DNA of 64,000 bases from Actinomycetes bacterium (GTDB taxonomy: Bacteria; Actinomycetota; Acidimicrobiia; Acidimicrobiales; CADCSY01), in the NCBI GenBank assembly GCA_031398745.1, contig JANNNX010000007.1, positions 8,844 through 72,843 of the forward strand, read 5' to 3'. Of the stretch, positions 3,789-31,268 are shown one piece after another. Each line of letters begins with the position of its first letter. Position 1 is the first letter of the stretch. The position numbers were made by a program, and so were the translations under genes. The notes beneath the pieces are model-generated. The model worked only from the letters and a program-made list of their open reading frames with translations, did not search any database and was not told where the DNA came from.

Positions 3789-5123
3789 GTGCCCAGCATC
3801 GGCCGGCGGACCCGGGCCTACGACCGCGCCATCCTGGGGTTGGCCATCCCGTCGCTCGGGGCACTGGTGGCCGAGCCGCTCTACGTACTGGTCGACACCG
3901 CCGTGGTCGGCCACCTGGGCACCGCCGAGCTGGCCGGTTTGGCCATGGCCGGGACCATCCTCAACAGCTCGTTCTGGATCTTCAGCTTCCTCTCCTACGG
4001 GACCACCGCGGCGGTGGCCCGGGCCCACGGCGGCGGCGACGACACCGGCGCCGCTCGCACCGGCGTCCAGGCCACCTGGCTGGCGGTGCTACTCGGGCTC
4101 GCGGTGGGACTCCTCGGCCAGCTCGTGGTCGGCCCGGTCATCGACCTGTTCGGGGCCTCGGCCGCCGCCCGGGAGGCCGGCCGCACCTACCAGCACCTGG
4201 CCCAGCTGGCCTCGCCGGCGGTGCTGGTAGCGGCGGCCGGCATCGGCTACCTCCGGGGCCGCCAGGACGCCCGGAGCCCACTGCGGGTGGCGCTCGTGGC
4301 CAACCTGGTGAACCTGGTGGCCGAGGTGGTGTGGATCTACGGCTTCGGCGGCGGGATCGCGGCCTCCGCCCTGTCCACGGTGGTGGTCCAGTACGGCGCC
4401 GCCATCCTCTACGCCCGGGCGGTGGTGCTCGACGCCCGCCGAGCCGGGGTCGGCCTCGGCCCCGACGCCCGCCGCATCCGGGCCCTGCTGGTGGTCGGGC
4501 GCGACCTGTTCATCCGCACCGGCTCGATCGTGGGCGCCCTGGCCTTCGCCACGGTGGTGGCCGGGCAGATCTCCACCGACGCGGTGGCCGCCCACCAGAT
4601 CGCCTGGCAGATCATGTCGCTGTTGGCGCTCACCCTCGACGCCCTGGGGATCGCCGGCCAGGCGATGGTCGGCCGCTTCCTCGGCGGCGACGACCCCGGC
4701 TCGGCCCGCGACGCCAGCCGGCGGATGCTCGAGATGGGGCTGATTCTCGGCGTGGGTCTGGGGCTGGTCGTGGCCGGGCTCCACGACCTGCTCCCCCGCC
4801 TGTTCACGTCCGACCCTGCGGTGCGGGACCAGGCCGGGAAGATCCTGTTGGTGGTGGCCGCCTTGCAGCCGATCAACGCCGTCAACTTCGTGCTCGACGG
4901 CGTCCTCATCGGGGCCGGCGACCTGCGCTGGCTGGCCCGAGCCATGTTCGTGGCCTGCGTCGGCTGCTACCTGCCGTGCGCGGCCGCCGTCCTGGTGCTC
5001 GACCTCGGGCTGGTGTGGCTGTGGGGGGCGATGGGCGTGATGATGGCCGCTCGCCTGGTCCTCACCGTCGGGCGCTACGTGGGCGACGGATGGCTGGTGA
5101 CCGGGGCCGAGCGAGCCCGCTAG
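3789..5123 (+). CDS. MATE family efflux transporter (DinF-like)
   Basis: 444-aa polytopic protein with the typical MATE N-terminus ILGLAIPSLGALVAEPLYVLVDTAVVGHLG. GTG start. Divergent from ilvD. Confidence 0.85.
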   Translation: MPSIGRRTRAYDRAILGLAIPSLGALVAEPLYVLVDTAVVGHLGTAELAGLAMAGTILNSSFWIFSFLSYGTTAAVARAHGGGDDTGAARTGVQATWLAVLLGLAVGLLGQLVVGPVIDLFGASAAAREAGRTYQHLAQLASPAVLVAAAGIGYLRGRQDARSPLRVALVANLVNLVAEVVWIYGFGGGIAASALSTVVVQYGAAILYARAVVLDARRAGVGLGPDARRIRALLVVGRDLFIRTGSIVGALAFATVVAGQISTDAVAAHQIAWQIMSLLALTLDALGIAGQAMVGRFLGGDDPGSARDASRRMLEMGLILGVGLGLVVAGLHDLLPRLFTSDPAVRDQAGKILLVVAALQPINAVNFVLDGVLIGAGDLRWLARAMFVACVGCYLPCAAAVLVLDLGLVWLWGAMGVMMAARLVLTVGRYVGDGWLVTGAERAR

Positions 5124-14435: not shown

Positions 14436-16967
<2,532 letters not shown>

Positions 16968-17938: not shown

Positions 17939-19017
17939 CTACCCGGCGAGACCCCCGCCCAGCACCTCATCGCCCCGGTAGACGACCACCGACTGGCCGG
18001 GGGCCACCCGCCGAGCCGGCTGATCGAGGCGGACCACCCCTCGGGCGGCGTCGACGGTGGCGGCCAGCGGGGCGCCGTGGGCCGAGCACTGGACCTCGAG
18101 CGGGGCACCCGGAGGCGGCGGCCCGGCCACCCAGGTCCAGCTGTCGGGATCGACCGTCACCTGGTCGACCAGGAGGTCCTCCGCGCCGCCGACCCGGACC
18201 ACGCCGGCCGCCACGTCGACGTCGACGGCGTAGCGGGCGGCGGCTCCCCCGGCAGCCCCCAGGCCACGCCGCTGGCCCACGGTGACCATCTCGATCGCGT
18301 CGATCCGGCCGACCTCCGCCCCCGAGTCGACATCGACCACCCGGGCGGGGGTGAAGCGCAGGCCGCGGTCGGCCAGGAAGCCCCGCCGACCGATCGAGGA
18401 GGCCACGAAGCAGACGTCCTGGCTGTCGGGCTTGGCCGCGGTCCGCAGACCGAGCGTCTCCGCGGCCCGGCGCACCGCAGCCTTGGTCCGGTCGCCGACC
18501 GGGAAGCGGGTGCGGGCCAGGACGCTCGACGGGAGCATGTGGAGCACGTAGCTCTGGTCCTTGGCCCGGTCGACCCCGCGCCGTAGACGCCCGTCGACCA
18601 CCTGGGCGTGGTGGCCGGGCGCCGTAGACGCCCGTCGACCACCTGGGCGTGGTGGCCGGTGGCCAGGATCTCGTAGCCGAGGTCGTCGACCCGGCGCAGC
18701 AGCCGATCGAACTTGATGGTGCGATTGCACTCGATGCACGGGTTCGGGGTGCGCCCGGCGGCGTGGGCGGCCACGTAGGGGTCGACCACCCACTCGGTGA
18801 AGTCGTCGGCCAGGTTGAAGACGTAGTGGTCGATGCCGAGCTGCTGGGCCACCCGGCGGGCGTCGTCGACATCGGCCGCCGAGCAGCAGCCCCGATCGGC
18901 GTCGCCGCCCCAGAGCCGGAGGGTCACCCCGGTCACGTCGTGGCCGGCTTCGACCGCCAGCGCGGCGGCCACCGACGAGTCGACCCCGCCGGACATGGCC
19001 ACCAGGACCCGGCTCAT
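17939..19017 (-). pseudogene. mnmA: tRNA 2-thiouridine(34) synthase MnmA, frame broken by a 41-bp tandem duplication
   Basis: The N-terminal frame carries MSRVLVAMSGGVDSS (PP-loop) ... NPCIECNRTIKF ... ILATGHHAQVVDGRLRR. The C-terminal frame carries GHHAQVVDGRLRRGVDRAKDQSYVLHML... The total is 1079 nt; minus 41 it is 1038 nt, a clean 345-aa ORF. Confidence 0.85.
18578..18659. repeat. perfect 2 x 41-bp tandem duplication inside mnmA
   Basis: The sequence gcgccgtagacgcccgtcgaccacctgggcgtggtggccgg occurs at 18578-18618 and again at 18619-18659. Confidence 0.95.
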
Positions 19018-20123
19018 GCTGCCCGCCGGCGGGCTCGGAGCTGCGCCACCGCCTCGGGCACCACGGTCAACGCCCGGTCGACGTCGTCCGGGGTCGACGA
19101 CCAGCCCAGGGTGAGCCGGAGGGAGGCCGCGGCCCGAGGATCGAGGCCCATCGCCCGGGTGACGTGCGACGCCTCGACCGCCCCCGAGGCGCACGAGGCC
19201 CCGATCGAGGCGAACACGCCGGCCTGGTCGAGCAGCACCAGCAGCGACTCGGCGTCGACCCCGTCGATCCGCAGGTGGGCATTGCCGGCGACCTTGCCGG
19301 CCCGCGGCACGGTCTCGGCGCACCCGTCGATCACTCCGGCCAGGCCGTCCACCAGCCGGTCGCGCAGGGCGCCAACCCGCTCGACGGTGGCCGAGCGCTC
19401 GGCCACGGTGCAGCGCACGGCCTCGGCCAGGCCGACGATGCCGGCCACGTCGTGGGTCCCGCTGCGCCGGTCGAGCTCCTGACCACCGCCCCGAAGGAGG
19501 GGGCGCAGCTCGACCCGCGGGCGCACCACCAGCGCCCCCACCCCCTGGGGGCCACCGAGCTTGTGCCCGGAGATCGACAGCAGGTCGGCGTCGGCCGCCA
19601 ACGCGGCCACGTCGAGCCACGGCAGGGCCTGGACGGCATCGGTGTGCAGCACCGCATCGGCGCCCATGCGCAGGCGCACCTCGGCCAGCGGCTGGATCGT
19701 GCCGACCTCGTTGTTGACCAGCATCACCGAGACGAGACCGGCGTCGGTCGGGACGGCGTCGAGGTCGACCCGGGCGTGGTGGTCGACCGGGATCGTCGCG
19801 CCGCCCAGGGCCAGCACCGGCTCGAGGACCGCGTGGTGCTCGATCGCCGAGCACACCGGCCGCCCTCGCCCGACCGCCTGGGCGATGGCGGTGGCATCGG
19901 ACTCGGTACCGCCGCTGGTGAACACCACCTCTCCGGGCCGGCAGCCCACACCGGCGGCCACCACCTCCCGCGCCTCTTCGACGGCCTGACGGGCGGCCCG
20001 GGCGACGGCGTGGCCACCCGACGCGTTGCCGAAGCGACCGCCACCGATCCAGGGCCACATGGCCGCGGCCACCGAGGGGCGGACCGGGGTGGTGGCGGCG
20101 TGGTCGAGGTAGGCGCCCGTCAC
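19014..20123 (-). CDS. iscS: cysteine desulfurase (class V aminotransferase, IscS/NifS-like)
   Basis: AYLDHAATTP, FTSGGTESD and SISGHKLGGPQGVGALV (PLP lysine) blocks. Its stop overlaps the mnmA ATG (ATGA at 19014-19017). Confidence 0.9.
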   Translation of the reverse strand: MTGAYLDHAATTPVRPSVAAAMWPWIGGGRFGNASGGHAVARAARQAVEEAREVVAAGVGCRPGEVVFTSGGTESDATAIAQAVGRGRPVCSAIEHHAVLEPVLALGGATIPVDHHARVDLDAVPTDAGLVSVMLVNNEVGTIQPLAEVRLRMGADAVLHTDAVQALPWLDVAALAADADLLSISGHKLGGPQGVGALVVRPRVELRPLLRGGGQELDRRSGTHDVAGIVGLAEAVRCTVAERSATVERVGALRDRLVDGLAGVIDGCAETVPRAGKVAGNAHLRIDGVDAESLLVLLDQAGVFASIGASCASGAVEASHVTRAMGLDPRAAASLRLTLGWSSTPDDVDRALTVVPEAVAQLRARRRAA

Positions 20124-20153
20124 CCGGCGAGCGTACCCAGGGCCCTCACCGGG

Positions 20154-20212
20154 CGGTCGGGCGGTGCACCGTCCTCACTGGGTCGGCGGACACCGTCCTC
20201 ACTGGGTCGGCG
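20154..20212. repeat. 24-nt-period tandem repeat (two full copies plus a partial one) spanning the RDD stop codon
   Basis: CACCGTCCTCACTGGGTCGGCG occurs at 20167-20188 and 20191-20212, preceded by a partial GGTCGGGCGG. The TCA (stop TGA on the minus strand) is present in both copies. Confidence 0.9.
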
Positions 20213-20963
20213 CGAACCGGCGCTGGTAGTTGGCGGCCACGCAGGCCAGGAAGGCCTCGGGTACCACGCCCGGGGGCACCGAGTGACGGAGCCGAGCCGC
20301 CAGCGGCGTCGCCACCTCGGCCGCCAGGCGCCCGCGAACCTCGGCCGGGAGCGCCGGGGCGCGGGTGAGGAATGCCCGGGCCGCCTGATACTCGCTCGGG
20401 CTCAGAGCGCCCACGTCGATCGTCGCCGCGTAAGCCTCGTAACCCAGGGGCACCGAGAACCACACCGGTGCCGGCGCTCGGGCCGCCGAGCGCTCCCGCA
20501 CCACGAGGGTGCCCGCGGCCATGTCGCCGAGGCGCTGGCTGCGCGGGCTGAGCAGCATGGCCAGCACACCGATCGAGCCCCACAGCAGCCACACGTCGAT
20601 CAGGCCCACGAAGCCTCGGACCGCGGCGTGGCGGAAGCGGATGGCGGCGCCGGTGGTCGTGACCACCCGCAGGCCCAGCACCGCTTTGCCCGGCGTCCGC
20701 CCCCGCCACAACGTCTCCCAGGCGATCGGGTACCCCAGGAAGATGGCCATCACCAGGAGAGTCAGCAGGGCCAGCAGCACCGCTCCGGCCACGTCGCCCC
20801 CGGACGCGACCTGGATGGCCAGGAGCCCGAGGAAGAGGAGGGCGACCTGACCGGTCAGGTCGAGGAGGGCGGCCACGACCCGGCTCCCGAGCCCGGCGGC
20901 GTCGAGATCGACCACGACCGCCTCGGGCGTGACCAAGCGCCCGCCGCTCCAGGGGTTCGCCAT
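20199..20963 (-). CDS. RDD family membrane protein
   Basis: MANPWSGGRLVTPEAVVVDLDAAGLGSR... RGRTPGKAVLGLRVV ... RLGDMAAGTLVV. I chose ATG 20963. The track extension to 21173 runs through the repeat array. Confidence 0.8.
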   Translation of the reverse strand: MANPWSGGRLVTPEAVVVDLDAAGLGSRVVAALLDLTGQVALLFLGLLAIQVASGGDVAGAVLLALLTLLVMAIFLGYPIAWETLWRGRTPGKAVLGLRVVTTTGAAIRFRHAAVRGFVGLIDVWLLWGSIGVLAMLLSPRSQRLGDMAAGTLVVRERSAARAPAPVWFSVPLGYEAYAATIDVGALSPSEYQAARAFLTRAPALPAEVRGRLAAEVATPLAARLRHSVPPGVVPEAFLACVAANYQRRFAPTQ

Positions 20964-20995
20964 GGCCTCGGGAGGGTACCGAGCGGCGCCCGGTC

Positions 20996-21175
20996 GACGT
21001 GGGGACGCCACGTCATCCTGGGAAGGACCCCACGTCCCCACGTCGGGCCCGGGGTCGGCCGCTCTCGGACGTGGGGACCCAGGGTCACGTTGGGGAGGAC
21101 CCGACGTCCCCACGTCGGCGCAAGTCCCCACGTCGGCGTACGTCCCCACGTCCCCACGTCCCCACGTCCCCACGT
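20996..21175. repeat. array of the GTCCCCAC / ACGTGGGGAC motif in a divergent promoter region, including (GTCCCCAC)4
   Basis: Four perfect head-to-tail 8-mers lie at 21142-21173. Forward copies lie at about 21028-21041, 21106-21113 and 21124-21131. Inverted copies lie at 20996-21006 and 21068-21078. Confidence 0.9.
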
Positions 21176-21238
21176 TTGGCCCGGCACCGCCAACGCCAGG
21201 GCGGGGATCTGCCTCGGTACCCTCCCCCGGCAGGGCCC

Positions 21239-22261
21239 ATGGACATCGACCACTTCATCGCTCGGCACCAGCCGAGCTGGGACCGACTCGAGGCCCTCGT
21301 CGGCCGGGCCGGGACGGGCGCCGGGTTGGGAGGCATCGCCGGCGCCGAGCTCGACGAGCTGGTCGTCCTCTACCAGCGGACCTCGACGCATCTCTCCCAG
21401 GCCCGCACGACCTACCGCGACCCGGCCCTGACCGGCCGCCTCAGCCAGCTGGTGTCGCGCGCCGGATCGGTGGTGTACGGCACCCGGCCCCGGTCGTGGC
21501 GGGCGTTCGGGCAGTTCGCCCGGGTGACCTTCCCGGCCGCGGTGTGGTCGGGGCGGCGCTTCGTCGCAGTGGCCGCGCTGCTCCTCCTGGTCCCGGCGAT
21601 CGCCATCGGGGTCTGGCTGGGCCTCTCGGATCGGGCCGTCGAGGCCACCGCCTCCGAGGCCGCCCGGCAGGCCTACGTGGAGGACGACTTCGAGGACTAC
21701 TACTCGTCCCAACCGGCGGTCGACTTCGCCAGCCAGGTGTTCACCAACAACGTCCGGGTCGGGATCCTCGCCTTCGCCGCCGGGATCCTGCTGTGCGTGC
21801 CGGCGGCACTGATCCTCGCCTTCAACGGCGCCAACCTCGGCGTGGCCGGTGGGCTGTTCGCCGACGCCGGGGAGCTGGGGAGGTTCTTCGGGCTGATCCT
21901 CCCCCACGGCCTGCTCGAGCTGACCGCGGTGGCCATCGCCGGCGGCGCCGGACTGCGGCTGGGCTGGTCGATCGTGTCCCCCGGCGACCGGCCCCGAGCC
22001 GAGGCCCTGGCCGAGGAGGGCCGCCGGTCGGTCACCGTCGTGCTCGGCCTGGTCGGCGCGTTCCTGGCGGCCGGCCTGGTCGAGGGCTTCGTCACCGGCC
22101 GACCGTGGCCGACCGCCGTCCGGGTGGGCATCGGCGTGGTGGTCTGGGCGGCGTTCGGCCTCTACGTCTGGCACTGGGGCCGGGTCGCCGAAGCCGCCGG
22201 GTACCGCGGGATCCTGGGTGAGGGCGACGACGCCGGCTGGGCCCGCCACGCCAGGGGTTGA
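21239..22261 (+). CDS. stage II sporulation protein M-like (SpoIIM/DUF95) integral membrane protein
   Basis: MDIDHFIARHQPSWDRLEALV ... FTNNVRVGILAFAAGILLCVPAALILAFNGANLG ... LPHGLLELTAVAIAGGAG. ATG 21239. Confidence 0.75.
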   Translation: MDIDHFIARHQPSWDRLEALVGRAGTGAGLGGIAGAELDELVVLYQRTSTHLSQARTTYRDPALTGRLSQLVSRAGSVVYGTRPRSWRAFGQFARVTFPAAVWSGRRFVAVAALLLLVPAIAIGVWLGLSDRAVEATASEAARQAYVEDDFEDYYSSQPAVDFASQVFTNNVRVGILAFAAGILLCVPAALILAFNGANLGVAGGLFADAGELGRFFGLILPHGLLELTAVAIAGGAGLRLGWSIVSPGDRPRAEALAEEGRRSVTVVLGLVGAFLAAGLVEGFVTGRPWPTAVRVGIGVVVWAAFGLYVWHWGRVAEAAGYRGILGEGDDAGWARHARG

Positions 22262-22328: not shown

Positions 22329-25253
22329 ATGGCGCCGCCCCCCGGACCCCCAGCGTTGGGCCGGGGCGTCGTGGTCACCGCCGGCGGCGTCGTCCCGGCC
22401 GGTTGGGCGGCCGCCGAGGTCGTGCGGATCGACGAGGCGGTGCTGGCAGACCCGGCCGACACCGTGACCCGCCTGCACCGAGCCTGGAGCCAGCGCCAGC
22501 CGCTCGTGGTCGAGCTGGCGGTCGACCCGGCCCGGTTCCGCGAGCCGATGACCGTGGGGGTCGAGCCCTGGACCCTCGGGCCCGACCTCGAGCTGTGGCC
22601 GGACCGGCTGCACCACCTGGTGTGGGCCAACACCTACGACGCCCGGTCGGGCGAACCGATCTGGTGGTGGGGTCGCAAGGCGGCCCGGCTGGGCGCGGTC
22701 GAGTCCCCCGACGGCACGGCCGACGTCACCCTGCCCGGCGGTCGCCCGGCCTGGATCGACGGAGGGCCCCGCGGCCCCCTGGATCTCGCCGACCGCTCGG
22801 CCGACATCGTCCACACCGAGTCGATCGACCTCGGCCGGCTCACCGTCGCCCCACCCGCGGGCCAGCCGACGGCCGTCCTGGCCCCGGACCAGCTGGCCGC
22901 CGTCGCCCACGGCAGCGGAGCGGCCCGGATCGTGGCCCCGGCCGGCTCGGGCAAGACCCGGGTCCTCACCGAGCGCCTCCGGCACCTGATCGTCGATCGG
23001 GGCGTCGAGCCCGAGACGGTTCTGGCGGTGGCCTACAACAAGAAGGCCCAGGCCGAACTCGAGGCCCGCACTGCCGACTTCCGACCCCGGGTCCGGACCC
23101 TCAACGCCCTCGGCTACGGGATCGTCGCCGACGCCTGGGGTCGGCGACCGGCGGTGCTCGACGAGCGCGAGGTCCGGTCGTTGGTCCGCGACCTGGTGCC
23201 CAAGACCCGGCGCCGGGCCAACACCGATCCCCTGGCCCCCTACCTCGAGGCGCTGTCGCTGGTTCGCCTGGGCCTGCGCGACCCCGAGGAGGTCGAGGCC
23301 GAGCGGGACGACGTGGCCGGGTTGGCGGCCGCCTTCGACGGGTTCCGGGGGGCGCTACGCCAGCGGGGGGCGGTCGACTTCGACGAGCAGGTCTACGCCG
23401 CGGTCGAGGCCCTGCTGGCCGACGGCGCCCTCCGGCGTCGGACCCAGAGCGGTTGTCGCCACCTCCTGGTCGACGAGCTCCAGGACCTGACTCCGGCCCA
23501 CGTCCTGCTCCTGCGGGTGCTCGCCGCCCCGGGGCTCGACGTGTTCGGGGTGGGTGACGACGACCAGGTCATCTACGACCACGCCGGTGCCGACCCGGGG
23601 TTCCTCATCGACTTCGACCGCCTGTTCCCGGGCGCCGCCGACCACCCGTTGACCATCAACTACCGCTGCCCGGTGGCAGTGGTCGACGCCGCCCGGACGC
23701 TGTTGTCCTACAACCACCGCAGGGTCGCCAAGGACATCGAGCCCGGACCGGCGGCCGACACCGACCGGTCGTCGCTGGTCGTGGTCCGCCACCCGGCCGA
23801 GGCCGGCGCCCGCTCGGTGGTCGAGGTCGTCCGGGGGTGGCTCGACGACGGGGTCGCACCCGCCTCGATGGCCGTGCTCACCCGGGTCAACTCCCTGCTC
23901 CTGGGTCCGCACGTGGCCCTGGCCAGCGCTGGGATCCCGATCGACTCGGTACTGCGACCCACCGTGCTCGACCGCCTCGGCCTGCGGGCTGCGCTGGCCT
24001 ACCTGCGCCTCGGCGCTTCCGATGACCACATGGCCGCGGCCGACATCGTCGAGATCCTCCGCCGCCCCAGCCGGGGCCTCCCGCCGTGGTTCGCGGAGCG
24101 CCTGGAGCGACGGACGTGGTGGAGCGCCGACCAGATCGAGGGCATCGGCGCGACCTTGCCCGACAAGGACGCGACCAAGGTCGCTTCGCTGGTCGATGAC
24201 CTGCGGACGGTGACGGTGGCGGTGTCCAGGGGCACCACCCGCCAGGCCTTGCGGGTCATCCGCGACGACATCGGCCTGGCCGGCGCCATCTCGCTGCTGG
24301 ACGAGTCGAAGGGGGGTGAGGGATCGAGCCACCTCGACGACCTCGAGGGCCTGCTGCAGGTGGCCGACCTCCACCCCGACCCGGTGACCTTCGAGGCCTG
24401 GCTGCGGGCCGCGCTGGCCGGCGGGCCCGAGGGCGCGCCCGAGCGAGACCGGTCGCCCGAGGGCGCCACCGCCTCTGGCGTCGTGCTCTCGACCGTGCAC
24501 CGGGTCAAGGGCATGGAGTGGGATCGGGTGGCGGTGTTCGGGGTCACCGCCGGCATCGTCCCCCACCGCCTGGCGGCCGACGTCGAGGAGGAACGCCGGG
24601 TCCTGCACGTGGCGATCACCCGAGGGCGCCACCGGGTGACGGTGCTGGCCGACGCCAGCCGACCCTCGCCCTTCCTGGGTGAGCTCGACGGGTCAGCCGC
24701 CCACGGCCCTCCCCCGGCGGTCCCCGGCCCCGGCCGGCGACCCGGCCTGACCGGCGCTCCGGGCGATCGGGCCAAGGCACCCCGGTCCCGGGCGGTCGAG
24801 GCACGGATCGGCACCGAGGTGGTCCTCAACGGAGGCTTCGCCGGGGTCGTCGCCCAGGTCGACCTGGAGGCGGGCGAAGCCGGCGTGCGACTCGAGTCGG
24901 GCGCCACCCTGCGGGTCCGCTTCGGCGAGACGGCCAAGGTCGGCGGGCGGGAGGTCACCCTGGTCGCACCCGAGACCCTTACCGCCGAAGCGGAGGCGGC
25001 CGAGATCGCACTCAAGGCCTGGCGCCTCGAACGGAGTCGCGCCGACAAGGTGGCGGCCTTCATCGTCTTGTCCGACCGCCACCTCCGCGGCATCGCCCGA
25101 GCCCAGCCGACCAGCCTGGCGGAGCTGTCGAAGCTCGACGGGATCGGCCCCACCAAGCTCGAGCAGTACGGCGAGGAGATCCTCGCCACCCTCGACGGCC
25201 TGGGTCCTGCGCCCGGAGCCCGAGGCGGGGACGCAGGGTCCGCCGCGCCGTGA
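22329..25253 (+). CDS. UvrD/PcrA-type superfamily 1 helicase with a roughly 210-aa N-terminal extension and C-terminal HRDC domain
   Basis: Walker A APAGSGKTRVLTER, LLVDELQDLTPAH, INYRC and TVHRVKGMEWDRV blocks. The HRDC-like tail is LKAWRLERSRADKVAAFIVLSDRHLRGIA...LSKLDGIGPTKLEQYG. ATG 22329. Confidence 0.85.
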   Translation: MAPPPGPPALGRGVVVTAGGVVPAGWAAAEVVRIDEAVLADPADTVTRLHRAWSQRQPLVVELAVDPARFREPMTVGVEPWTLGPDLELWPDRLHHLVWANTYDARSGEPIWWWGRKAARLGAVESPDGTADVTLPGGRPAWIDGGPRGPLDLADRSADIVHTESIDLGRLTVAPPAGQPTAVLAPDQLAAVAHGSGAARIVAPAGSGKTRVLTERLRHLIVDRGVEPETVLAVAYNKKAQAELEARTADFRPRVRTLNALGYGIVADAWGRRPAVLDEREVRSLVRDLVPKTRRRANTDPLAPYLEALSLVRLGLRDPEEVEAERDDVAGLAAAFDGFRGALRQRGAVDFDEQVYAAVEALLADGALRRRTQSGCRHLLVDELQDLTPAHVLLLRVLAAPGLDVFGVGDDDQVIYDHAGADPGFLIDFDRLFPGAADHPLTINYRCPVAVVDAARTLLSYNHRRVAKDIEPGPAADTDRSSLVVVRHPAEAGARSVVEVVRGWLDDGVAPASMAVLTRVNSLLLGPHVALASAGIPIDSVLRPTVLDRLGLRAALAYLRLGASDDHMAAADIVEILRRPSRGLPPWFAERLERRTWWSADQIEGIGATLPDKDATKVASLVDDLRTVTVAVSRGTTRQALRVIRDDIGLAGAISLLDESKGGEGSSHLDDLEGLLQVADLHPDPVTFEAWLRAALAGGPEGAPERDRSPEGATASGVVLSTVHRVKGMEWDRVAVFGVTAGIVPHRLAADVEEERRVLHVAITRGRHRVTVLADASRPSPFLGELDGSAAHGPPPAVPGPGRRPGLTGAPGDRAKAPRSRAVEARIGTEVVLNGGFAGVVAQVDLEAGEAGVRLESGATLRVRFGETAKVGGREVTLVAPETLTAEAEAAEIALKAWRLERSRADKVAAFIVLSDRHLRGIARAQPTSLAELSKLDGIGPTKLEQYGEEILATLDGLGPAPGARGGDAGSAAP

Positions 25254-25278
25254 CGCGGCGTCCCCACGTCCGACCGGT

Positions 25279-26588
25279 CTACAGGCTGCCGGTCCGCTTG
25301 ACCTGGAGGTAGGCGTCGACGACGCCGGCTGTCAGCTCGCCCGGCGGGGCGTCGACCACCGAGGCTCCGAGGCTGCGGAGCCGGGTCGCGACCCGATCCC
25401 GCTCCTCCAGCACGCCGAGGGCGGCGGCCTTGCGAAAGGCGCTGGCGGCGTCGAGGGGGTCGCCGCCAGCCCAGCCGGCGACCAGGGGATCGGTGACCGA
25501 CGCCACCACCAGGAGGTGGCCGCGAGCGATGACCGGAACGGCCGGCAGCATCGTGTCGGCCACCGTGTGAGCGGCCAGGTCGGTCAGCAGGACCACCAGC
25601 GAGCGCCGTCGGAACCGGGCCAAGGTGGCGGCGAAGGCGGCCCGGTAGTCGGCCTCGGCCAGCTCAGGCTCCCAGCCGGCGAAGGCCTCGGCCACCCGGC
25701 CCACCTGGGAGCCACCGGCCCGGGGCGGCACCACACCGACGACCTCGGCCCCGAAGCCGAGGACACCGACCGATCGCCGAGCGCCCCGGCTACGTGGGTG
25801 AGGGCGAGCACCGCGTCCATGGCGTGCTCCACCCGGGGCACGTCGGCCACCCGGGCCGCCATCGTCCGACCCAGGTCGAGGATGCACACCACCGACTGGT
25901 TCCGCTCGGCCCGGTAGGTGCGCACGATGGTGCGTCCCGTGCGGGCCGTCGCCGCCCAGTCGATCCGCCGACTCTCGTCGTCGACGGTGTACTCCCGCAG
26001 CGAGTCGAGCTCCGTCCCGCCCCCCCGGGCCAGCGAGGTCCGAAGGCCGGACTCGAGCAGCCGGAACTGGCGCAACCGAAGCTCGGCCGTGGTCCGACCC
26101 GGGAACCGGGGGTGGACCCGCAGGCGTCCGGGGGCCGGGCGCACGCCCTGCCGGGCCGCTAGGCCGAGCGGTCCCTCGATCCGCACCGTCACCGGGCCGA
26201 GGTCGAACCGGCCCCGGCGCGACGGCGTCAGGGTGGTGACGGCCACGGCCCGACCCAGCGCGGGCACCTCGAGCTGGGCCCGACGGGAGGCCGCCCCGAG
26301 CGACGGCGCCAAGGCGTCGGCCAGGCCGACCACCAGGCGTCGCTCGGTGGGGTTGGTCAGGGTCCAGGTCAGCGGGGCGGCGGCACCGAGTGTCACCACC
26401 TCGGCCACCGTCCGGGTGACGTCGACCTCGGCCGGACGCGGGGTCCGAGCCCAATCGACCAGGGCCAGTGCCAACACCAGCCCGTCGACCAGGAGGAAGC
26501 CGGCCGGGAACCCCACCGGCAGGACCAGCGCGGCCAGCGAGGCGGCGACGGCCAGCACCGCCAGGCGCCGGGTGGGGATGGGCAGCAT
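25279..26588 (-). pseudogene. DUF58 (VWA-like) protein, reading frame broken near 25770
   Basis: The N-terminal frame carries two TM segments, then REYTVDDESRRIDWAATARTGRTIVRTYRAERNQSVVCILDLGRTM ... ALTHVAGALGDR. The C-terminal frame carries VGVLGFGAEVVGVVPPR ... LVVLLTDL. The total is 1310 nt, one short of a codon multiple. Confidence 0.75.
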
Positions 26589-26616
26589 CAGCGGCGCGGT
26601 CCGTCGGAGGCGCCCG

Positions 26617-27643
<1,027 letters not shown>

Positions 27644-27654
<11 letters not shown>

Positions 27655-28768
27655 GTTCGACGACCTCCTCGTTCAGCACCCGGGCCGAGTCGGCCAGGCG
27701 CACCAGTTCTTCGGGGGTGCCGACCGGCGCGGCCACCAGCACCGCCCGCACCCGCTCGGGAGGCAGGCCGGCCCGGTGGGCGACGATCTCGGCCACCTGC
27801 TCTGGGGCCGCGGTGGGCGCGAGTCCCACCCGGGTCGCCAGCCGGCGCGACAGGTCCCGACGCAACACCACTCCCGCCTCCTCGTGACGACGCCCGTAAT
27901 GGTGGAGGTCGCCGATCGCCCGCACGAGATCGGCGGCCTCCAACTCCACCGGCAGCGCCTCCGCCACCGGAGGTCCGAGCCGGCGGGCCCGCCACCAGGC
28001 GTAGAGGCCGAACGCCACCGCCAGGGCGGCCAGCAAGCTGCGGACCCGGTCGGACACCAGGTCACCTAGCGTCTCGTCGCCGGCGGCGACCAGCGAGCGT
28101 TGAAGGAACGCCACCCGGGTGCCTTCGACCGGCGCCAGCAGGGCGGCCGCCAGCGCGGCGTTGTCGGCATCCCCCAGAGCGTCGTTGGTGAAGATGCCGG
28201 CGCCGCCGACGGCCACCACCGTGCCGGCACCCTCGTCCCGGGCCACGACCAGCGACCCCGTCACGCCGTCGAGCTCGAAGCACCCGTCCGAGGTCGCGTC
28301 GACGGTGTACACGCTGGCGCCCGGTGTCGGGGCCACTTCCCCGACGTCGGCCACCGCGGCGAGGGCACAACGCCCGGAGCCCAGCGTCGGCGACTCGCCG
28401 AGGACCGAGACGCTGCCGGCCACCGGCGGGGTGAGGCTCGACGTCGGGTCGGCGACCACCAGCACCCCCCCGGCTCGCACCCACGACAGCAGTCGATCCC
28501 GATCGGGCGAGCTCAGCTGGTCGGCCAGCAGGAGAGCGACGTCGACCCGGCCCTCGACCGGTGGCTGACGGGTCACCTCCACGGTGGCGCCGAGCTGGCG
28601 GAGCGACAGCACCAGGGCCTTGGTGCCGTCGGCCGCGACGCTGTCGGGAGCGAGGGGCTCCGTGCTGTCGCCGGAGCCCGCCAGGGCTCCCAGGGCCAGG
28701 ACGACGACGGCCAGCGCCACCCAGGGGGTGGCCCGGTGCCAGTGCACGGTCGCCCACCGGGAGGTCAC
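27644..28768 (-). CDS. DUF4350-like membrane-anchored protein
   Basis: GTG 28768 overlaps the upstream stop (GTGA). N-terminal TM (WVALAVVVLALGALAG), a periplasmic-type domain, and a second TM near the C-terminus (LLAALAVAFGLYAWW). The family call rests on context and architecture. It overlaps the moxR start by 11 nt. Confidence 0.6.
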
Positions 28769-29394
28769 CGGCGCTCGCCGGTCGATACCAGCACCCGGTC
28801 GGCGAGTGCCCGGAAGCGGGCGCTCTCGTCCGCTCCCGTGGGCTGCAGGCCGTACCACGCGTCCTCGAAGAGGGCGGTGGCGGCCGTGAACTCGCCGGCT
28901 GCCGACGGGCGGTGGCGGGCGACCTGGCGCCGGTACTCGCCGGCCGTGCGCCCGGGGGCCTCCTCGACCACCCCACCGTCGGCGAGGTCGGCGACGAGCC
29001 CCCGCCACCGGCACCGCAGGGCCGACCGCCACTCGCCGGCCGCCTCCCGGGCCACCGCCTCGGCCCGCCACTCGGCCGGCCGGCGCCGAGCCACGCCGGC
29101 CACCGGTGACGCGCTGACCGGGTCGGGTCGCACCCCCCGGGTGACCCGCCAAGCGACGAAGCCGACCACCGCCAGGAGGAGGAGGCCCACCGCCCAGGCG
29201 CCGAGCGACCCGGTGCCCTGACCAGCACCCACGAGGTCGGCGATCCGCTCCAGGAGCCAGTCCCGCAGCCGGTCGAGCAGCGACGGGCGCAGCCCGGCGA
29301 ACTCCGGGCGCGACAGCACGTCGTCGACCACCTCGTTGGCGGTGCCGGCCGACTGGGACGGCACCGGCAGGTCAGCGAGGAGCATCGTGGGCAC
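28765..29394 (-). CDS. DUF4129 domain protein
   Basis: Central TM (WAVGLLLLAVVGFVAW), then GRTAGEYRRQVARHRPSAAGEFTAATALFEDAWYG, typical of the DUF4129 C-terminal helix bundle. An alternative start is ATG 29385. Confidence 0.7.
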   Translation of the reverse strand: MPTMLLADLPVPSQSAGTANEVVDDVLSRPEFAGLRPSLLDRLRDWLLERIADLVGAGQGTGSLGAWAVGLLLLAVVGFVAWRVTRGVRPDPVSASPVAGVARRRPAEWRAEAVAREAAGEWRSALRCRWRGLVADLADGGVVEEAPGRTAGEYRRQVARHRPSAAGEFTAATALFEDAWYGLQPTGADESARFRALADRVLVSTGERR

Positions 29395-30511
29395 CGGCCC
29401 GAGCGAGCTCGGCGGCGACGATCTCGAGATCGAACCCCTCGGTGCGGATCCGGGCGTCGAAGTACTGGAGGGTGGCCACGATGGCCACCAGCGGCTGGGT
29501 GATCAGGGCCGCGGCGATGCCACCGGCCGCCACCAGCAGCCACCCCCACCGCATCCCCACCACCAGGGCGGCCACCGTCGGCCCCGTGCTGATGGCGCTG
29601 CCCAGCACGGACGTGACCAACCCGGCCAAGAGGGCCACGCCGAGCACGGGCCAGAACCGGCGACGGACGAGCGCCCAGGAGCGCCGGACTCCCCGAAGGG
29701 GGCCCAGCTCCTCGACCACGATGGCGGGGGCGACCAGCACCGACAGGCCCATGACGGCCAGGGCCAAGCCGACGGAGGCAATGAGCACGGCCACGCCGAC
29801 GATGATCGGCACCGCGCCCAAAGCTCCCCCGACCGAGGAGCCGACGGCCAGCAGCACGGCGCCGAGCACCAGCGCGCCGACGAACGCCCCGAACTCGGCC
29901 AGGTGGACGAGCAGCCAACCTCCCAGCAGGCTCCAGAACCGCCGCCGGACGACCCGGATGGCCTGGCCGGCGCCGATCTGGCGACCGAGGTAGGAGGCGG
30001 CCACGATCTGGCTGATCGCACCGGCGAGGAACGGCAACAGCAGCAGGTTCAGCCCGGTGGACACCAGCGACGCCACCGTGCTCCATCCGTCCCCCGACGA
30101 CGCGGTCACGGCCGAAGGGTCGCTGACCACGTCGAAGATCCCGTTACCACCGAGGAGGCCGCGCTGGCCGAGGGCGGCCAAGAGCTGCACCGGGACGGAG
30201 AAGCCCACCATGATCCCCAGGATCGGCTTGAGGTTGGCCTTGAGCAGCTTGATCGACCCGTCGAGGATGTCGGCCACCGTCATCGGGTGCAGGGGCAGCG
30301 GCCCGGTCCGGTCGTCGCCGGCCTTGGGGCGAGGCTGCTCCCAGCCCTGAGGGCCTCCGGCGGGAGGCAGGGGCGGTGCCGGCAAGGGCGCCCAGCCCGG
30401 CGCGGGTGGGGCCGGCGGCATGGGAGGCGCGGGGGGCGCCCAGCCGCGATCGTCGGCTGGCGGCGAACCAGGGGTGACCGTCACCGCCAGGATGGTAAGG
30501 GTGTCGGTCAT
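29372..30511 (-). CDS. polytopic membrane protein with Pro-rich N-terminus (GPDPase-membrane/DUF975-like)
   Basis: PPAPPMPPAPPAPGWAPLPAPPLPP, then ADILDGSIKLLKANLKPILGIMVGF and about 6 TM segments. First gene of the MoxR operon. The start is uncertain (ATG 30511 or internal Met codons). Confidence 0.55.
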   Translation of the reverse strand: MTDTLTILAVTVTPGSPPADDRGWAPPAPPMPPAPPAPGWAPLPAPPLPPAGGPQGWEQPRPKAGDDRTGPLPLHPMTVADILDGSIKLLKANLKPILGIMVGFSVPVQLLAALGQRGLLGGNGIFDVVSDPSAVTASSGDGWSTVASLVSTGLNLLLLPFLAGAISQIVAASYLGRQIGAGQAIRVVRRRFWSLLGGWLLVHLAEFGAFVGALVLGAVLLAVGSSVGGALGAVPIIVGVAVLIASVGLALAVMGLSVLVAPAIVVEELGPLRGVRRSWALVRRRFWPVLGVALLAGLVTSVLGSAISTGPTVAALVVGMRWGWLLVAAGGIAAALITQPLVAIVATLQYFDARIRTEGFDLEIVAAELARAGAHDAPR

Positions 30512-31268
30512 GACCGCGTACGACCCGGCCGCCTACGGCGACGCCTTCGCCGACGTCTACGACGACTGGTACGGACAGGTCACCGACGCCGAGGCCACCG
30601 CCGACGCGGTCGCGGCCCTGGCCGATGGCGGCCCGGTCCTGGAGCTGGGCATCGGCACCGGCCGCCTGGCGCTGCCCATCGCCGCCCGAGGCCTCGCCGT
30701 CCACGGGATCGACGCGTCCGAGCCGATGCTCGAGCGGCTCCGGACCAAGCCCGGCGCCGACGCGGTGGTGGTGCACCGGGGCGACTTCACCGAGGTGGCG
30801 CTCACCCCGCCGGGTGACGGCTACGCGGTGGTGCTGGTGGGGTTCAACACCCTCCTCAACCTGCCGACGGCCGACGCCCAGGCCCGCTGCGTCGCCCGGT
30901 CGGCGGAGGTGCTGCGCCCCGGGGGGCATCTGGTGATCGAGATGCAGCTGCTGGACGGCGACGTTCTCCGCGCCGCGCCCGACCAGGGCCGGGAGGGGTC
31001 GGCCGGGAGCCCAGGCCCGGGAGTGGCGGGCCGAAGGGCTCGGCACCGCACCGACGTCGACTTGGCCTCCCAGACGGTGAGCGGATCGATCGAGACACCA
31101 TCGGGGGTGCGGCCCTGGCGCATCCGCTGGCTCGACATCGACGAGCTCGATGCGATGGCCGTGGCCGCCGGCCTCGAGCCGGAGGGGCGCTGGGCGACGT
31201 GGGCCGCCGCACCCTGGACCCCAGCCGACGAGACCGCCATCTCCCTCTTCCGACGGGTCCCCGGATAG
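30510..31268 (+). CDS. class I SAM-dependent methyltransferase
   Basis: MTAYDPAAYGDAFADVYDDWYG and the SAM motif VLELGIGTGRLALPIAARG..VHGIDASEPML. Confidence 0.8.
   Translation: MTAYDPAAYGDAFADVYDDWYGQVTDAEATADAVAALADGGPVLELGIGTGRLALPIAARGLAVHGIDASEPMLERLRTKPGADAVVVHRGDFTEVALTPPGDGYAVVLVGFNTLLNLPTADAQARCVARSAEVLRPGGHLVIEMQLLDGDVLRAAPDQGREGSAGSPGPGVAGRRARHRTDVDLASQTVSGSIETPSGVRPWRIRWLDIDELDAMAVAAGLEPEGRWATWAAAPWTPADETAISLFRRVPG

Follow-up and report, generated by a model that had tools for sequence, protein, structure and literature searches.

How should one read a dense repeat array lying between two divergent genes: as a conserved switch that controls both of them, or as the trace of a repeat that was inserted there and expanded? 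The question is raised by a 275-bp spacer (20964–21238) within a 64,000-nucleotide stretch of DNA that was analysed as a whole (the window). The two divergent genes and the features found at the spacer ends are the following.

20199–20963, minus strand: gene for an RDD-family membrane protein (ATG at 20963; Pfam PF06271, E = 1.8e-17)
21239–22261, plus strand: gene for a SpoIIM-like membrane protein (ATG at 21239; Pfam PF01944, E = 4.5e-43)
20965–20983, minus strand: left copy of a 19-nt inverted repeat (I3), the minus strand reading CTCGGTACCCTCCC
21213–21231, plus strand: right copy of the 19-nt inverted repeat, reading CTCGGTACCCTCCC
20973–20978, minus strand: TACCCT (TANNNT) −10-like box on the RDD side, 9 nt before the RDD ATG
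21218–21223, plus strand: TACCCT box on the SpoIIM side, 15 nt before the SpoIIM ATG

The initial annotation took this spacer to be non-coding, and that assignment holds. In both proteins the N-terminus encoded from the annotated ATG aligns with those of the orthologues (MDIDHF..., ...LVTPEAVV...), an independent gene caller returned identical starts for the two genes, and the RDD protein, whose N-terminus is kept in the orthologues, is the same in the gene call made on Logan contigs. The SpoIIM-like protein has 4573 homologues, the nearest being at most 70% identical. The copies of the 19-nt inverted repeat at either end of the spacer are 89% complementary and share an exact 14-mer on both strands. 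Judged from their sequence and position, the TACCCT boxes are the likely core promoters of RDD and SpoIIM, and both are located outside the array. A scan for E. coli-type promoters and terminators gave no sites, a result that is uninformative at 73% GC.

The array is built from one 8-nt unit, GTCCCCAC, which is found 14 times on the two strands of the window. Nine of these exact copies are crowded into 180 bp (20999–21173) and four of them follow one another perfectly head-to-tail, while shuffles of the whole window contain 8.4 ± 2.7 copies, or approximately 0.02 expected per 180 bp. Only five copies are found outside 20999–21173, four of them outside any hairpin unit, where about eight are expected for the whole window; a reading as a DNA-uptake-like sequence was ruled out on this chance-level occurrence outside the hairpins. 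The features of the array, together with a related unit located downstream, are listed below.

20995–21045, unstranded: hairpin U1 (CGACGTGGGGACG, 25 nt, CGTCCCCACGTCG; perfect 13-nt arms; inverted repeat I13)
21045–21067, unstranded: G-rich 23-nt linker GGGCCCGGGGTCGGCCGCTCTCG, which gives the 72-bp period (direct repeat D2, spacing 72)
21067–21117, unstranded: hairpin U2 (GGACGTGGGGAC, 27 nt, GTCCCCACGTCG; inner stem GGGTC/GACCC)
21106–21141, plus strand: two 18-nt right-arm-only repeats, GTCCCCACGTCGGCGCAA and GTCCCCACGTCGGCGTAC (TRF period 18; direct repeats D1 and D6)
21142–21175, plus strand: (GTCCCCAC)4 followed by GT, an arm-derived 8-nt microsatellite with its tandem copies at 21142–21173
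21144–21171, minus strand: predicted canonical G-quadruplex (G4) motif GGGG(ACGT GGGG)3, that is GGGGACGTGGGGACGTGGGGACGTGGGG (G4Hunter 2.0–2.3)
25221–25271, unstranded: hairpin U3 (13 + 25 + 13), between convergent helicase and DUF58 genes

Most of what had been described from the letters alone is found in place. Longer forward copies (GTCCCCACGTCGG) lie at 21034, 21106, and 21124, inverted copies (GACGTGGGGAC) occupy 20996–21006 and 21068–21078, and the eight GGGG tracts claimed for the minus strand are counted as eight CCCC tracts on the plus strand. A further copy described as degenerate at 21086–21096 is indeed present as such, but it is weak (CACGTTGGGGA). Tandem Repeats Finder (TRF) reports a period of 8 (9 copies, 76% matches) and a period of 18 (3.7 copies). 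The claimed match of (GGGGACGT)4 to the canonical G4 pattern is also confirmed: four G-runs of at least three G with loops of 1–7 nt are found at 21144–21171, and no other motif in the 64 kb has four G-runs that are each four G or longer.

The 8-mer is not a free-standing unit. It is the arm of a hairpin of approximately 49–51 nt that consists of GACGTGGGGACG, 25 nt, and CGTCCCCACGTC. In the spacer, two complete hairpins are spaced at 72 bp, and behind them come copies of the arm alone, two at an 18-nt period and then four at an 8-nt period; the first of the 18-nt repeats, GTCCCCACGTCGGCGCAA, overlaps the right arm of U2. The two hairpins form a higher-order repeat (20996–21046 and 21068–21118, 82% identity), each copy of which is an inverted-repeat pair with 11–13-nt arms, and the 23-nt linker is measured between the GACGT...ACGTC hairpin cores at 20996–21044 and 21068–21116. 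Folded as DNA, U1 reaches −18.8 kcal/mol (z = −3.5) and U2 −17.2 kcal/mol. The third hairpin, U3, overlaps the end of the helicase gene, whose stop codon falls in the U3 loop, and it has GGGGACsCAGGGTC in common with U2. The arms are perfect in U1 and U2, and U3 has two mismatches in its left arm. Thus the window contains three hairpin units at two loci. The 72-bp repeat, the 19-nt inverted repeat at the spacer ends, and U3 had been overlooked in the initial annotation.

The same hairpin is abundant in other genomes of the class. A scan with the pattern GGGGACN{25,27}CGTCCCCACGTC recovered at least 114 stretches, at least 77 of which come from two Acidimicrobiia MAGs, STL-ACT9 and SSF4. These two contain at least 189 units in at least 81 head-to-tail arrays, with one to nine units per array (most commonly two), periods of 62 nt (76 cases) or 72 nt (15 cases), and G-rich linkers of 13 or 23 nt; the 23-nt/72-nt class is found in both genomes, and the pair U1–U2, 72 nt apart with a G-rich 23-nt linker, conforms to this layout. 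Orientation is uniform in 64 of the 66 multi-unit arrays and mixed in none, and an identical 47-mer recurs in ten separate 8-kb blocks of STL-ACT9. The invariant inverted arms ACGTGGGGAC and GTCCCCACGT are identical between the window family and the two MAGs, and the interior from GGGGAC to GTCCCC measures 27 nt in all three window units and in essentially all of the 189 MAG units, as opposed to mostly 26 or 28 in chance matches from other taxa. Both arms are perfect in 187 of the 189 units, whereas the interiors are far less conserved. A covariance model (R1) built from STL-ACT9 and SSF4 only, with the window excluded, matched U1 (20993–21047, E = 2.5e-8), U2 (21065–21119, E = 6e-7), and U3 (25219–25273, E = 0.004) over 55 of 55 positions each when run against the 64 kb, and the next match had E = 0.64.

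The interiors of the window units contain inner stems of their own, lack the apical TGTG, and share no consensus with the interiors of STL-ACT9 or SSF4; because of this, it is the arms and the length of the interior that indicate homology between the window units and the family, and by sequence the window hairpins are best classed as a diverged subfamily. A covariation test found 88.9% of the cells paired, which is not above column shuffles, so that nothing in it points to selection on structure over and above the inherited palindrome. The window comes from neither STL-ACT9 nor SSF4: its GC content is 73.3% as against 70.7% and 70.4%, and the tetranucleotide correlation is 0.90 versus 0.99. 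The idea that it is itself a part of STL-ACT9 was rejected on these signatures, and it has no megablast match there.

Elsewhere the head-to-tail arrays are found chiefly at the 3′ ends of genes. A crude gene call places them in convergent contexts in 26 cases, tandem in 27, and divergent in 9, so that 53 of the 65 classifiable arrays in STL-ACT9 and SSF4 are convergent or tandem. Many of them lie 5–30 nt past a stop codon, the adjoining genes are unrelated, and orientation relative to the upstream gene is biased 27:11. The orthologous spacers between RDD and SpoIIM show a different picture. In eight orthologous lineages it is only 19–73 bp long, and the motif, the hairpin, and any match to R1 are absent from all eight. 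The array therefore reads as a lineage-specific insertion. For the same reason the claim that it constitutes a control region or operator of the MoxR-associated module is not supported, and absence from orthologous spacers had been set beforehand as the test for refuting it.

It could still be supposed that a protein binds ACGTGGGGAC, with its palindromic ACGT core, at 9–11 sites and thereby regulates the MoxR-associated membrane module, since the sites are dense at this locus and the near-invariance of the arms next to variable interiors is compatible with protein recognition. However, orthologous promoters lack the motif, the 8-mer does not exceed chance outside the hairpins, and no transcription-factor gene was found among the neighbourhood genes scanned. 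What had been considered as a possible 8-nt operator unit is in fact the arm of a dispersed hairpin that elsewhere lies mostly past the stop codons of unrelated genes, and we regard regulation of this kind as very unlikely.

A second proposal starts from the opposite strand, on which (GGGGACGT)4 would fold into a G-quadruplex (with an i-motif or slipped DNA facing it) and modulate the RDD and SpoIIM promoters. According to the twin-domain model, negative supercoiling arises between divergent genes, and it would be expected here as well. The tract resembles known promoter G4s in its four GGGG runs, its 4-nt loops, and its setting in a divergent promoter region, and G-tract microsatellites also flank other arrays of the family, where the density of G4 motifs is 0.63/kb as against 0.10/kb elsewhere, an enrichment of approximately six-fold. 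Unlike an established promoter G4, however, the tract is a predicted structure that is conserved in none of the eight orthologous spacers; it descends from a hairpin arm of a dispersed repeat, its end is 43 nt short of the putative SpoIIM −10 box, and it lies approximately 165 nt from that of RDD. There is also no equivalent in the rest of the family: (GTCCCCAC)n with n of at least 2 is absent from the 77 family blocks of STL-ACT9 and SSF4, and compared with these the 8-mer expansion is unique to the RDD/SpoIIM locus. A G4 switch is thus very improbable, and the motif is a formal by-product of slippage in a repeat arm, although the 8-mer expansion may have some local function at this locus.

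The hairpins might instead act as RNA, in the form of a 5′-UTR element, a small RNA, or terminators or insulators of upstream RDD/SpoIIM transcripts. The spacer folds far better than shuffles on both strands (z = −4.2 and −4.7), and the 3′-end location of the family elsewhere, together with its 27:11 orientation bias, would be compatible with a terminator or stabiliser. Against this, no Rfam match was obtained, covariation does not rise above shuffles, and the array has no U-tracts. Moreover, transcription of two divergent genes from −10-like boxes directly beside their start codons would probably leave the array outside both mRNAs, and we give a structured RNA at this locus hardly any weight. 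In the orthologous spacers, TACCGT −10-like boxes stand 6–10 nt before both start codons. The comparison thereby exposes a conserved palindromic TACCGT/GGTACC core at the RDD/SpoIIM pair, which probably drives leaderless divergent transcription of the two genes in Acidimicrobiia.

Our preferred explanation, which we consider probable, sees in the array a local cluster formed by a palindromic repeat of a dispersed, REP-like kind that was inserted and then slipped, and not a conserved switch. In this scenario the ancestral spacer would have been very short, with overlapping or adjacent −10 boxes of the leaderless type. A doublet of elements of the 72-nt period class would have been inserted into it, leaving a copy of the promoter core at either end of the insert, the two inverted relative to each other. 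Slipped-strand mispairing would then have lengthened the right arm of U2, first in an 18-nt and then in an 8-nt register, the latter creating (GTCCCCAC)4 and with it the G4-type tract on the opposite strand. The family as a whole may spread as a non-autonomous selfish element that depends on an enzyme for its movement and amplifies locally. Both putative core promoters lie between the array and the genes, and transcripts of RDD or SpoIIM probably do not include the array; its effect would therefore be neutral or, at most, structural; a cruciform, slipped DNA, or a G4 could absorb negative supercoiling between the divergent promoters.

As for the route of insertion, no transposase was found beside the arrays at two candidate loci (L047 and L120, where arrays flank ferredoxin-reductase-like and DUF559 genes) or among the window genes scanned. 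No clear or general pattern of target-site duplication was seen, with one single unit (L024) having a direct repeat of 10 out of 13 positions. In place of such duplications the array linkers copy one flank: the linker copies the adjacent flank in 32 of 54 arrays as against 2 of 54 controls. The conservation of the arms far above that of the interiors hints at sequence-specific recognition, which is not explained by a pure “junk” reading. On the less likely view, taken up below, that the family is a new kind of mobile element, the combination of ACGTGGGGAC arms, a 27-nt interior, and quantised linkers of 13 or 23 nt would suggest a dedicated non-RAYT protein that measures both sequence and length, and the periods of 62 and 72 nt differ by one helical turn.

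Among known repeat systems the closest comparison is with REP, BIME, and REPIN sequences, short extragenic hairpin-forming repeats with many dispersed copies (Bertels and Rainey, 2011, PMC3116915; Di Nocera et al., 2013, PMC3733652). The present family is likewise extragenic, palindromic, and high in copy number (in STL-ACT9 and SSF4), lies mostly between convergent or co-directional genes just past the coding regions, with some units overlapping gene ends, and shows lineage restriction, genome-specific subfamilies, and frequent doublets or clusters. However, its hairpin of approximately 49 nt has about 21 paired positions, while REPs are 20–40 bp long with stems of 5–13 bp (PMC3733652). The host phylum also differs, being Actinomycetota; the text of the REP survey does not contain the word “Actinobacteria” and reports none there (PMC3733652). 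Further differences are that the family is without GTAG and carries no unpaired GTAG/CGTC tag, the GACG/CGTC pair forming the base of the stem, and that its units follow one another strictly head-to-tail at 62 or 72 nt, whereas head-to-head or tail-to-tail dimers are typical of REPs. Near the L047 and L120 arrays and among the window genes scanned, no RAYT gene was seen.

Regular 62- or 72-nt periodicity and partly palindromic constant parts also give the arrays a likeness to CRISPR. Nevertheless, within any one array the 27-nt interiors and the 13-nt linkers differ little or not at all, the interiors often recur between loci as well, and each genome has dozens of tiny arrays. With such identical “spacers” a CRISPR array was ruled out, and no cas genes were found in the Pfam-scanned neighbours. 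A comparison within Actinobacteria is offered by the MIRU-type intergenic VNTRs of mycobacteria, which have 40–100-bp units arranged head-to-tail in few copies at many intergenic loci, with a copy number that varies between loci; MIRUs are not long perfect palindromes and are described with small ORFs coupled to the flanking genes. By description the two resemble each other in their head-to-tail, intergenic arrays of locus-dependent copy number, but the unit of the present family is a hairpin and its 62-nt period is not a multiple of the codon.

It is possible, though unlikely, that the family represents an undescribed actinobacterial mobile or amplifying element whose arrays serve as structural DNA or RNA elements. 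If so, arrays could act, for example, as bidirectional terminators or as stems of RNase III size, and the RDD/SpoIIM array could be a supercoil-responsive cruciform or a G4 insulator between divergent leaderless promoters. Database searches added no further members: Rfam gave nothing above noise for the spacer and five family arrays, a metagenome scan with the window-subfamily 20-mer GGACCCSACGTCCCCACGTC returned only four chance matches in coding DNA of other organisms, a blastn search of a plasmid collection matched neither the window spacer nor an STL-ACT9 array, and viral contigs yielded three chance matches only. A literature search on the sequence, on Acidimicrobiia repeats, and on the MAG name returned nothing relevant, and the family is undescribed there. 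For annotation, the explanation by repeat insertion and slippage curbs the over-interpretation of an array that looks strikingly like a G4 or an operator, and it adds a well-defined hairpin repeat family for Acidimicrobiia. Its unusual features (head-to-tail order, quantised periods, arms conserved above interiors, and G-tract flanks) could reveal the route of amplification.

An independent assembly of the same sample (Logan contigs, run SRR20217204) matches the window exactly over 20083–21135 and again, from 21146, over the spacer and SpoIIM, the only differences being located downstream (an SNP at 23021 and a 1-bp indel near 25770). Most of the spacer is thus confirmed, and the array is not an assembly artefact. 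The Logan contigs break only within repeated arm copies, and contig L001 begins inside the (GTCCCCAC)4 tract with at least 3.5 copies, the exact count of four tandem 8-mers being that of the window's own assembly. One might see here a contingency locus (VNTR), in which changes of copy number in 8-, 18-, or 72-nt steps alter promoter geometry and switch RDD and SpoIIM: perfect short tandem repeats slip readily, family arrays range from one to nine units between loci, and the k = 31 contigs break exactly at this point, which leaves copy number without independent confirmation. Such breaks are, however, expected from any repeat of at least k, and the putative −35 positions lie between the repeats and the genes, so that a change in copy number would leave the −10/−35 spacing unaffected; a contingency locus therefore seems very improbable. 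More generally, arrays of the family interrupt assemblies made with short k and may be mistaken for CRISPRs by CRISPR finders.

The spacer between the divergent RDD and SpoIIM-like genes carries a dense array of GTCCCCAC, which the initial annotation had read as a candidate G-quadruplex (G4) or operator control region. All the repeat features listed there are present in the sequence; the array is probably an inserted doublet of a palindromic repeat resembling the repetitive extragenic palindromes (REP), expanded later by slippage. The G+C content of the window is about 73%, and the source names of its nearest homologues point to an actinobacterial MAG of Acidimicrobiia type. The genes around the spacer are arranged as follows.

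Genes and spacer of the locus
14436-16967, plus strand, ligA
about 17939-19014, minus strand, mnmA
19014-20123, minus strand, iscS-like gene
20199-20963, minus strand, RDD gene
20964-21238, RDD/SpoIIM-like spacer, 275 bp
21239-22261, plus strand, SpoIIM-like gene
22329-25253, plus strand, UvrD/HRDC helicase gene
from 25279 (25279-26590 region), minus strand, DUF58 gene
26617-27672, minus strand, MoxR gene
29372-30532, minus strand, DUF7847 gene

Nine of the 14 exact copies of GTCCCCAC in the window lie within 20999-21173, the expectation being about 8 over the whole 64 kb on both strands; the exact 8-mer count rests on the window's own assembly. Tandem repeat periods (TRF) in the spacer are 8 and 18, and a perfect fourfold tandem stands at 21142-21173. 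Its minus strand reads GGGG(ACGTGGGG)3 (21144-21171), the window's sole motif with four runs of at least 4 G. The array is real, since two contigs from the independent Logan assembly of run SRR20217204 reproduce the spacer, and an assembly artefact is thus excluded: one is identical over 20083-21135 without a mismatch, the other is identical from 21146 through the spacer and SpoIIM, and both end only within repeated arm copies.

These repeats are hierarchical. The segments at 20996-21046 and 21068-21118 repeat each other directly, 72 bp apart and with 82% identity, and each copy is in itself an inverted repeat (U1 and U2). On the 3' side of U2 the right arm alone recurs, twice in an 18-nt register (21106-21141) and four times in an 8-nt register (21142-21173). 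Based on this anatomy, the 8-mer is one arm of a hairpin roughly 50 nt long.

Hairpin units of the window
20995-21045, U1, in the spacer: CGACGTGGGGACG, 25 nt, CGTCCCCACGTCG
21067-21117, U2, in the spacer: GGACGTGGGGAC, 27 nt, GTCCCCACGTCG
25221-25271, U3, at the helicase 3' end: 13 + 25 + 13 architecture as in U1

U3 has GGGGACsCAGGGTC in common with U2 and lies between the convergent helicase and DUF58 genes, with the helicase stop codon inside its loop. Single-strand folding of the units gives -17 to -19 kcal/mol (DNA parameters), and on either strand the complete spacer is much more stably folded than its shuffles (z = -4.2 and -4.7). The spacer ends form a 19-nt inverted repeat (20965-20983 / 21213-21231), so that the same CTCGGTACCCTCCC stands immediately 5' of both start codons.

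The same hairpin is dispersed in two other genomes. A scan for GGGGAC-N25-27-CGTCCCCACGTC in one genome per species returned at least 114 stretches; among the matches listed, Acidimicrobiia bacterium STL-ACT9 accounts for 44 eight-kb blocks and Acidimicrobiia bacterium SSF4 for 33. The remainder are singletons from unrelated taxa whose interiors mostly measure 26 or 28 nt, and we treated them as chance. One block from Neobacillus niacini (L100) holds two long perfect-palindrome terminators (992-1048 and 3793-3853; GGGGACGGTTCTCGTGGTCAT...ATGACCACGAGAACCGTCCCC with a T-run), which matched by chance and look like a separate repeated terminator element. Among the matches listed, STL-ACT9 and SSF4 have at least 189 units in at least 81 arrays, with one unit in 14 arrays, two in 41, three in 18, four in 6, and six and nine in one each; a 62-nt period was counted 76 times and a 72-nt period 15 times, and orientation is uniform in 64 arrays and mixed in none. 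The STL-ACT9 consensus is sGACGTGGGGACG-tGaGgtGGGTTGTGgACCCGTTTtG-CGTCCCCACGTCGG, and in that of SSF4 the inner stem is replaced by another, compensating one (ATCGCGyTGTGAGCGCG). The arms are essentially invariant, including an outer ACGT required by no search pattern, and the interiors are variable. Covariation did not rise above column shuffles in the hairpins of these two genomes, and thus nothing shows selection for structure as such. An identical 47-mer in at least 10 separate STL-ACT9 blocks, among the matches listed, is read as a sign of recent copying. The linkers, mostly G-rich, measure 13 or 23 nt; in 32 of 54 arrays the linker shares 60% or more identity with the flank next to it, versus 2 of 54 at a control offset, indicating that the hairpin is amplified together with a stretch of flank of fixed length.

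A crude GC3-based gene call places these arrays between genes (in convergent context 26 times, tandem 27 and divergent 9, among the matches listed), and many start 5-30 nt past a stop codon or provide the stop via ACG-TGA. In several blocks (e.g. L038, L045, L062, L075, L090, L104, L106) the neighbouring ORF enters the first hairpin by 16-17 nt and terminates in the TGA where arm and interior meet (GAC GTG GGG ACG TGA); the element can therefore supply a stop codon. The strand with the TGTG loop, which usually also carries the G-rich linker, is antisense to the gene with the abutting 3' end in 27 cases and sense in 11. No Rfam family matched the hairpin, and literature searches found no description of it.

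A covariance model built from STL-ACT9 and SSF4 units only (R1) and run filters-off over the 64 kb recovered all three window units at full length, the next match having E = 0.64.

Matches of R1 in the window
20993-21047, U1, E = 2.5e-8
21065-21119, U2, E = 6e-7
25219-25273, U3, E = 4e-3

The window units share the arms and the exact 27-nt interior length with the family, and U1-U2 also the 72-nt period and 23-nt G-rich linker, whereas their interiors differ and the apical TGTG is missing. That the window is part of either MAG was rejected on GC content (73.3% vs 70.7% and 70.4%) and on tetranucleotide correlation, which is 0.90 between window and MAGs, 0.986 between the MAGs and 0.997 between STL-ACT9 block halves. 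We therefore regard U1-U3 as a diverged subfamily, carried by a third genome. Metagenomes scanned with a 20-mer specific to this subfamily gave chance matches only.

The orthologous locus was taken from eight lineages, the nearest SpoIIM homologues having at most 70% identity. The order ligA, mnmA, iscS, RDD and divergent SpoIIM is kept, often continuing as DUF58-MoxR-DUF4350-DUF4129-DUF7847. The helicase gene stands between SpoIIM and DUF58 in this genome only; in the eight other loci the gene next to SpoIIM is either DUF58, leading on to MoxR, or another gene. Their RDD/SpoIIM spacers are only 19-73 bp long, with neither GTCCCCAC nor a match to the hairpin model. On this orthologue comparison, which the initial annotation had itself put forward as a check, both of its functional proposals fail: a G4 switch, whose one favourable point is the formal motif, is improbable, and an operator array, for which the conserved arms are the one argument, is slightly more so. 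The orthologues have TACCGT or TACGGT (TANNNT) 6-10 nt 5' of both starts in all eight lineages, and the two boxes overlap as the palindrome CGAGGGTACCGTCG where the spacer is shortest. Going by what is known of promoters and leaderless mRNAs in actinobacteria, we infer that these are probably the -10 elements of a divergent pair of transcripts, both essentially leaderless; the TACCGT/GGTACC core conserved near both starts (L002, L005, L008, L011, L133-L136) suggests that the -10 boxes of the pair overlap. In the window, the corresponding boxes are TACCCT, 9 nt 5' of the RDD ATG and 15 nt 5' of the SpoIIM ATG, hence at the two extremities of the spacer, and the intervening 229 bp are additional DNA particular to this lineage. 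With a putative core promoter on either side of the insert, the array probably lies upstream of both and is not transcribed, and with this geometry an RNA element at the spacer is very unlikely. The ORF extensions through the array are non-coding, as had been proposed, because the protein N-termini align from the annotated ATGs.

The insertion reading would run as follows: a REP-like, non-autonomous palindromic repeat entered a short divergent promoter region as a 72-nt-period doublet, the right arm of U2 then expanded via slippage into the 18-nt and 8-nt repeats, and the G4-type tract arose out of that expansion. G-tract microsatellites recur beside other family arrays, as (GGGGTC)n and (GGGGTTCGGA)n, and (GTCCCCAC)n tracts are absent from the other arrays sampled. 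Linker-related G/C-tract microsatellites, e.g. (CCCCGA)7 and CCGAACCCC repeats, also flank arrays (L026 4578-4620; L050 7560-7700; L116 161-187; L073 4250-4290), some being canonical G4 motifs. Within 60 nt of an array, such motifs are about six times as dense as elsewhere (0.63 vs 0.10 per kb), and they lie beside only 10 of 81 arrays among the matches listed. We infer that the effect of the array is neutral or merely structural; cruciform, slipped DNA or G4 might form under negative supercoiling between the divergent promoters. Mycobacterial MIRU-VNTR loci appear similar in array form, although they differ in that the present unit is a hairpin and its 62-nt period is no codon multiple. A VNTR or contingency locus is given very little probability here. 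CRISPR is ruled out, as the "spacers" are identical.

Like REP, BIME and REPIN elements, the family is extragenic, palindromic, dispersed and 3'-end-biased, with genome-specific subfamilies and frequent doublets. Unlike REPs, it has no unpaired GTAG or CGTC tag, its stem is much longer, and it is strictly head-to-tail where REPs are inverted dimers (PMC3733652); its host phylum lies outside the coverage of that survey. Neither the REP transposase RAYT nor another transposase was found among the limited set of neighbour genes examined. The family is REP-like, though it lacks several defining REP features.

Several smaller irregularities occur in the neighbouring genes. A perfect 41-bp tandem duplication at 18578-18659 shifts the frame of mnmA on the minus strand, and in silico removal of one copy brings the ORF back to its full length, about 345 aa (MSRVLVAMSGGVDSS...); either mnmA is a true pseudogene or the assembly is wrong here. 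The RDD stop codon is spanned by a perfect 24-bp x1.9 tandem duplication (20167-20212); as Logan contig L137, assembled independently, has it too, it is not particular to the window's assembler. Relative to another Logan contig (L001), the window has a single SNP at 23021 and is one C short near 25770 (CGACCCGATC vs CGACCGATC), which splits DUF58 into two ORFs where L001 encodes an intact 436-aa protein. Lastly, the N-terminal extension of the MoxR ORF contains a 21-nt (7-codon) tandem repeat x3.4 (27550-27625; repeated peptide ...DGMPDPA..., read by eye); this could be a low-complexity coding stretch, or the start may be mis-called.
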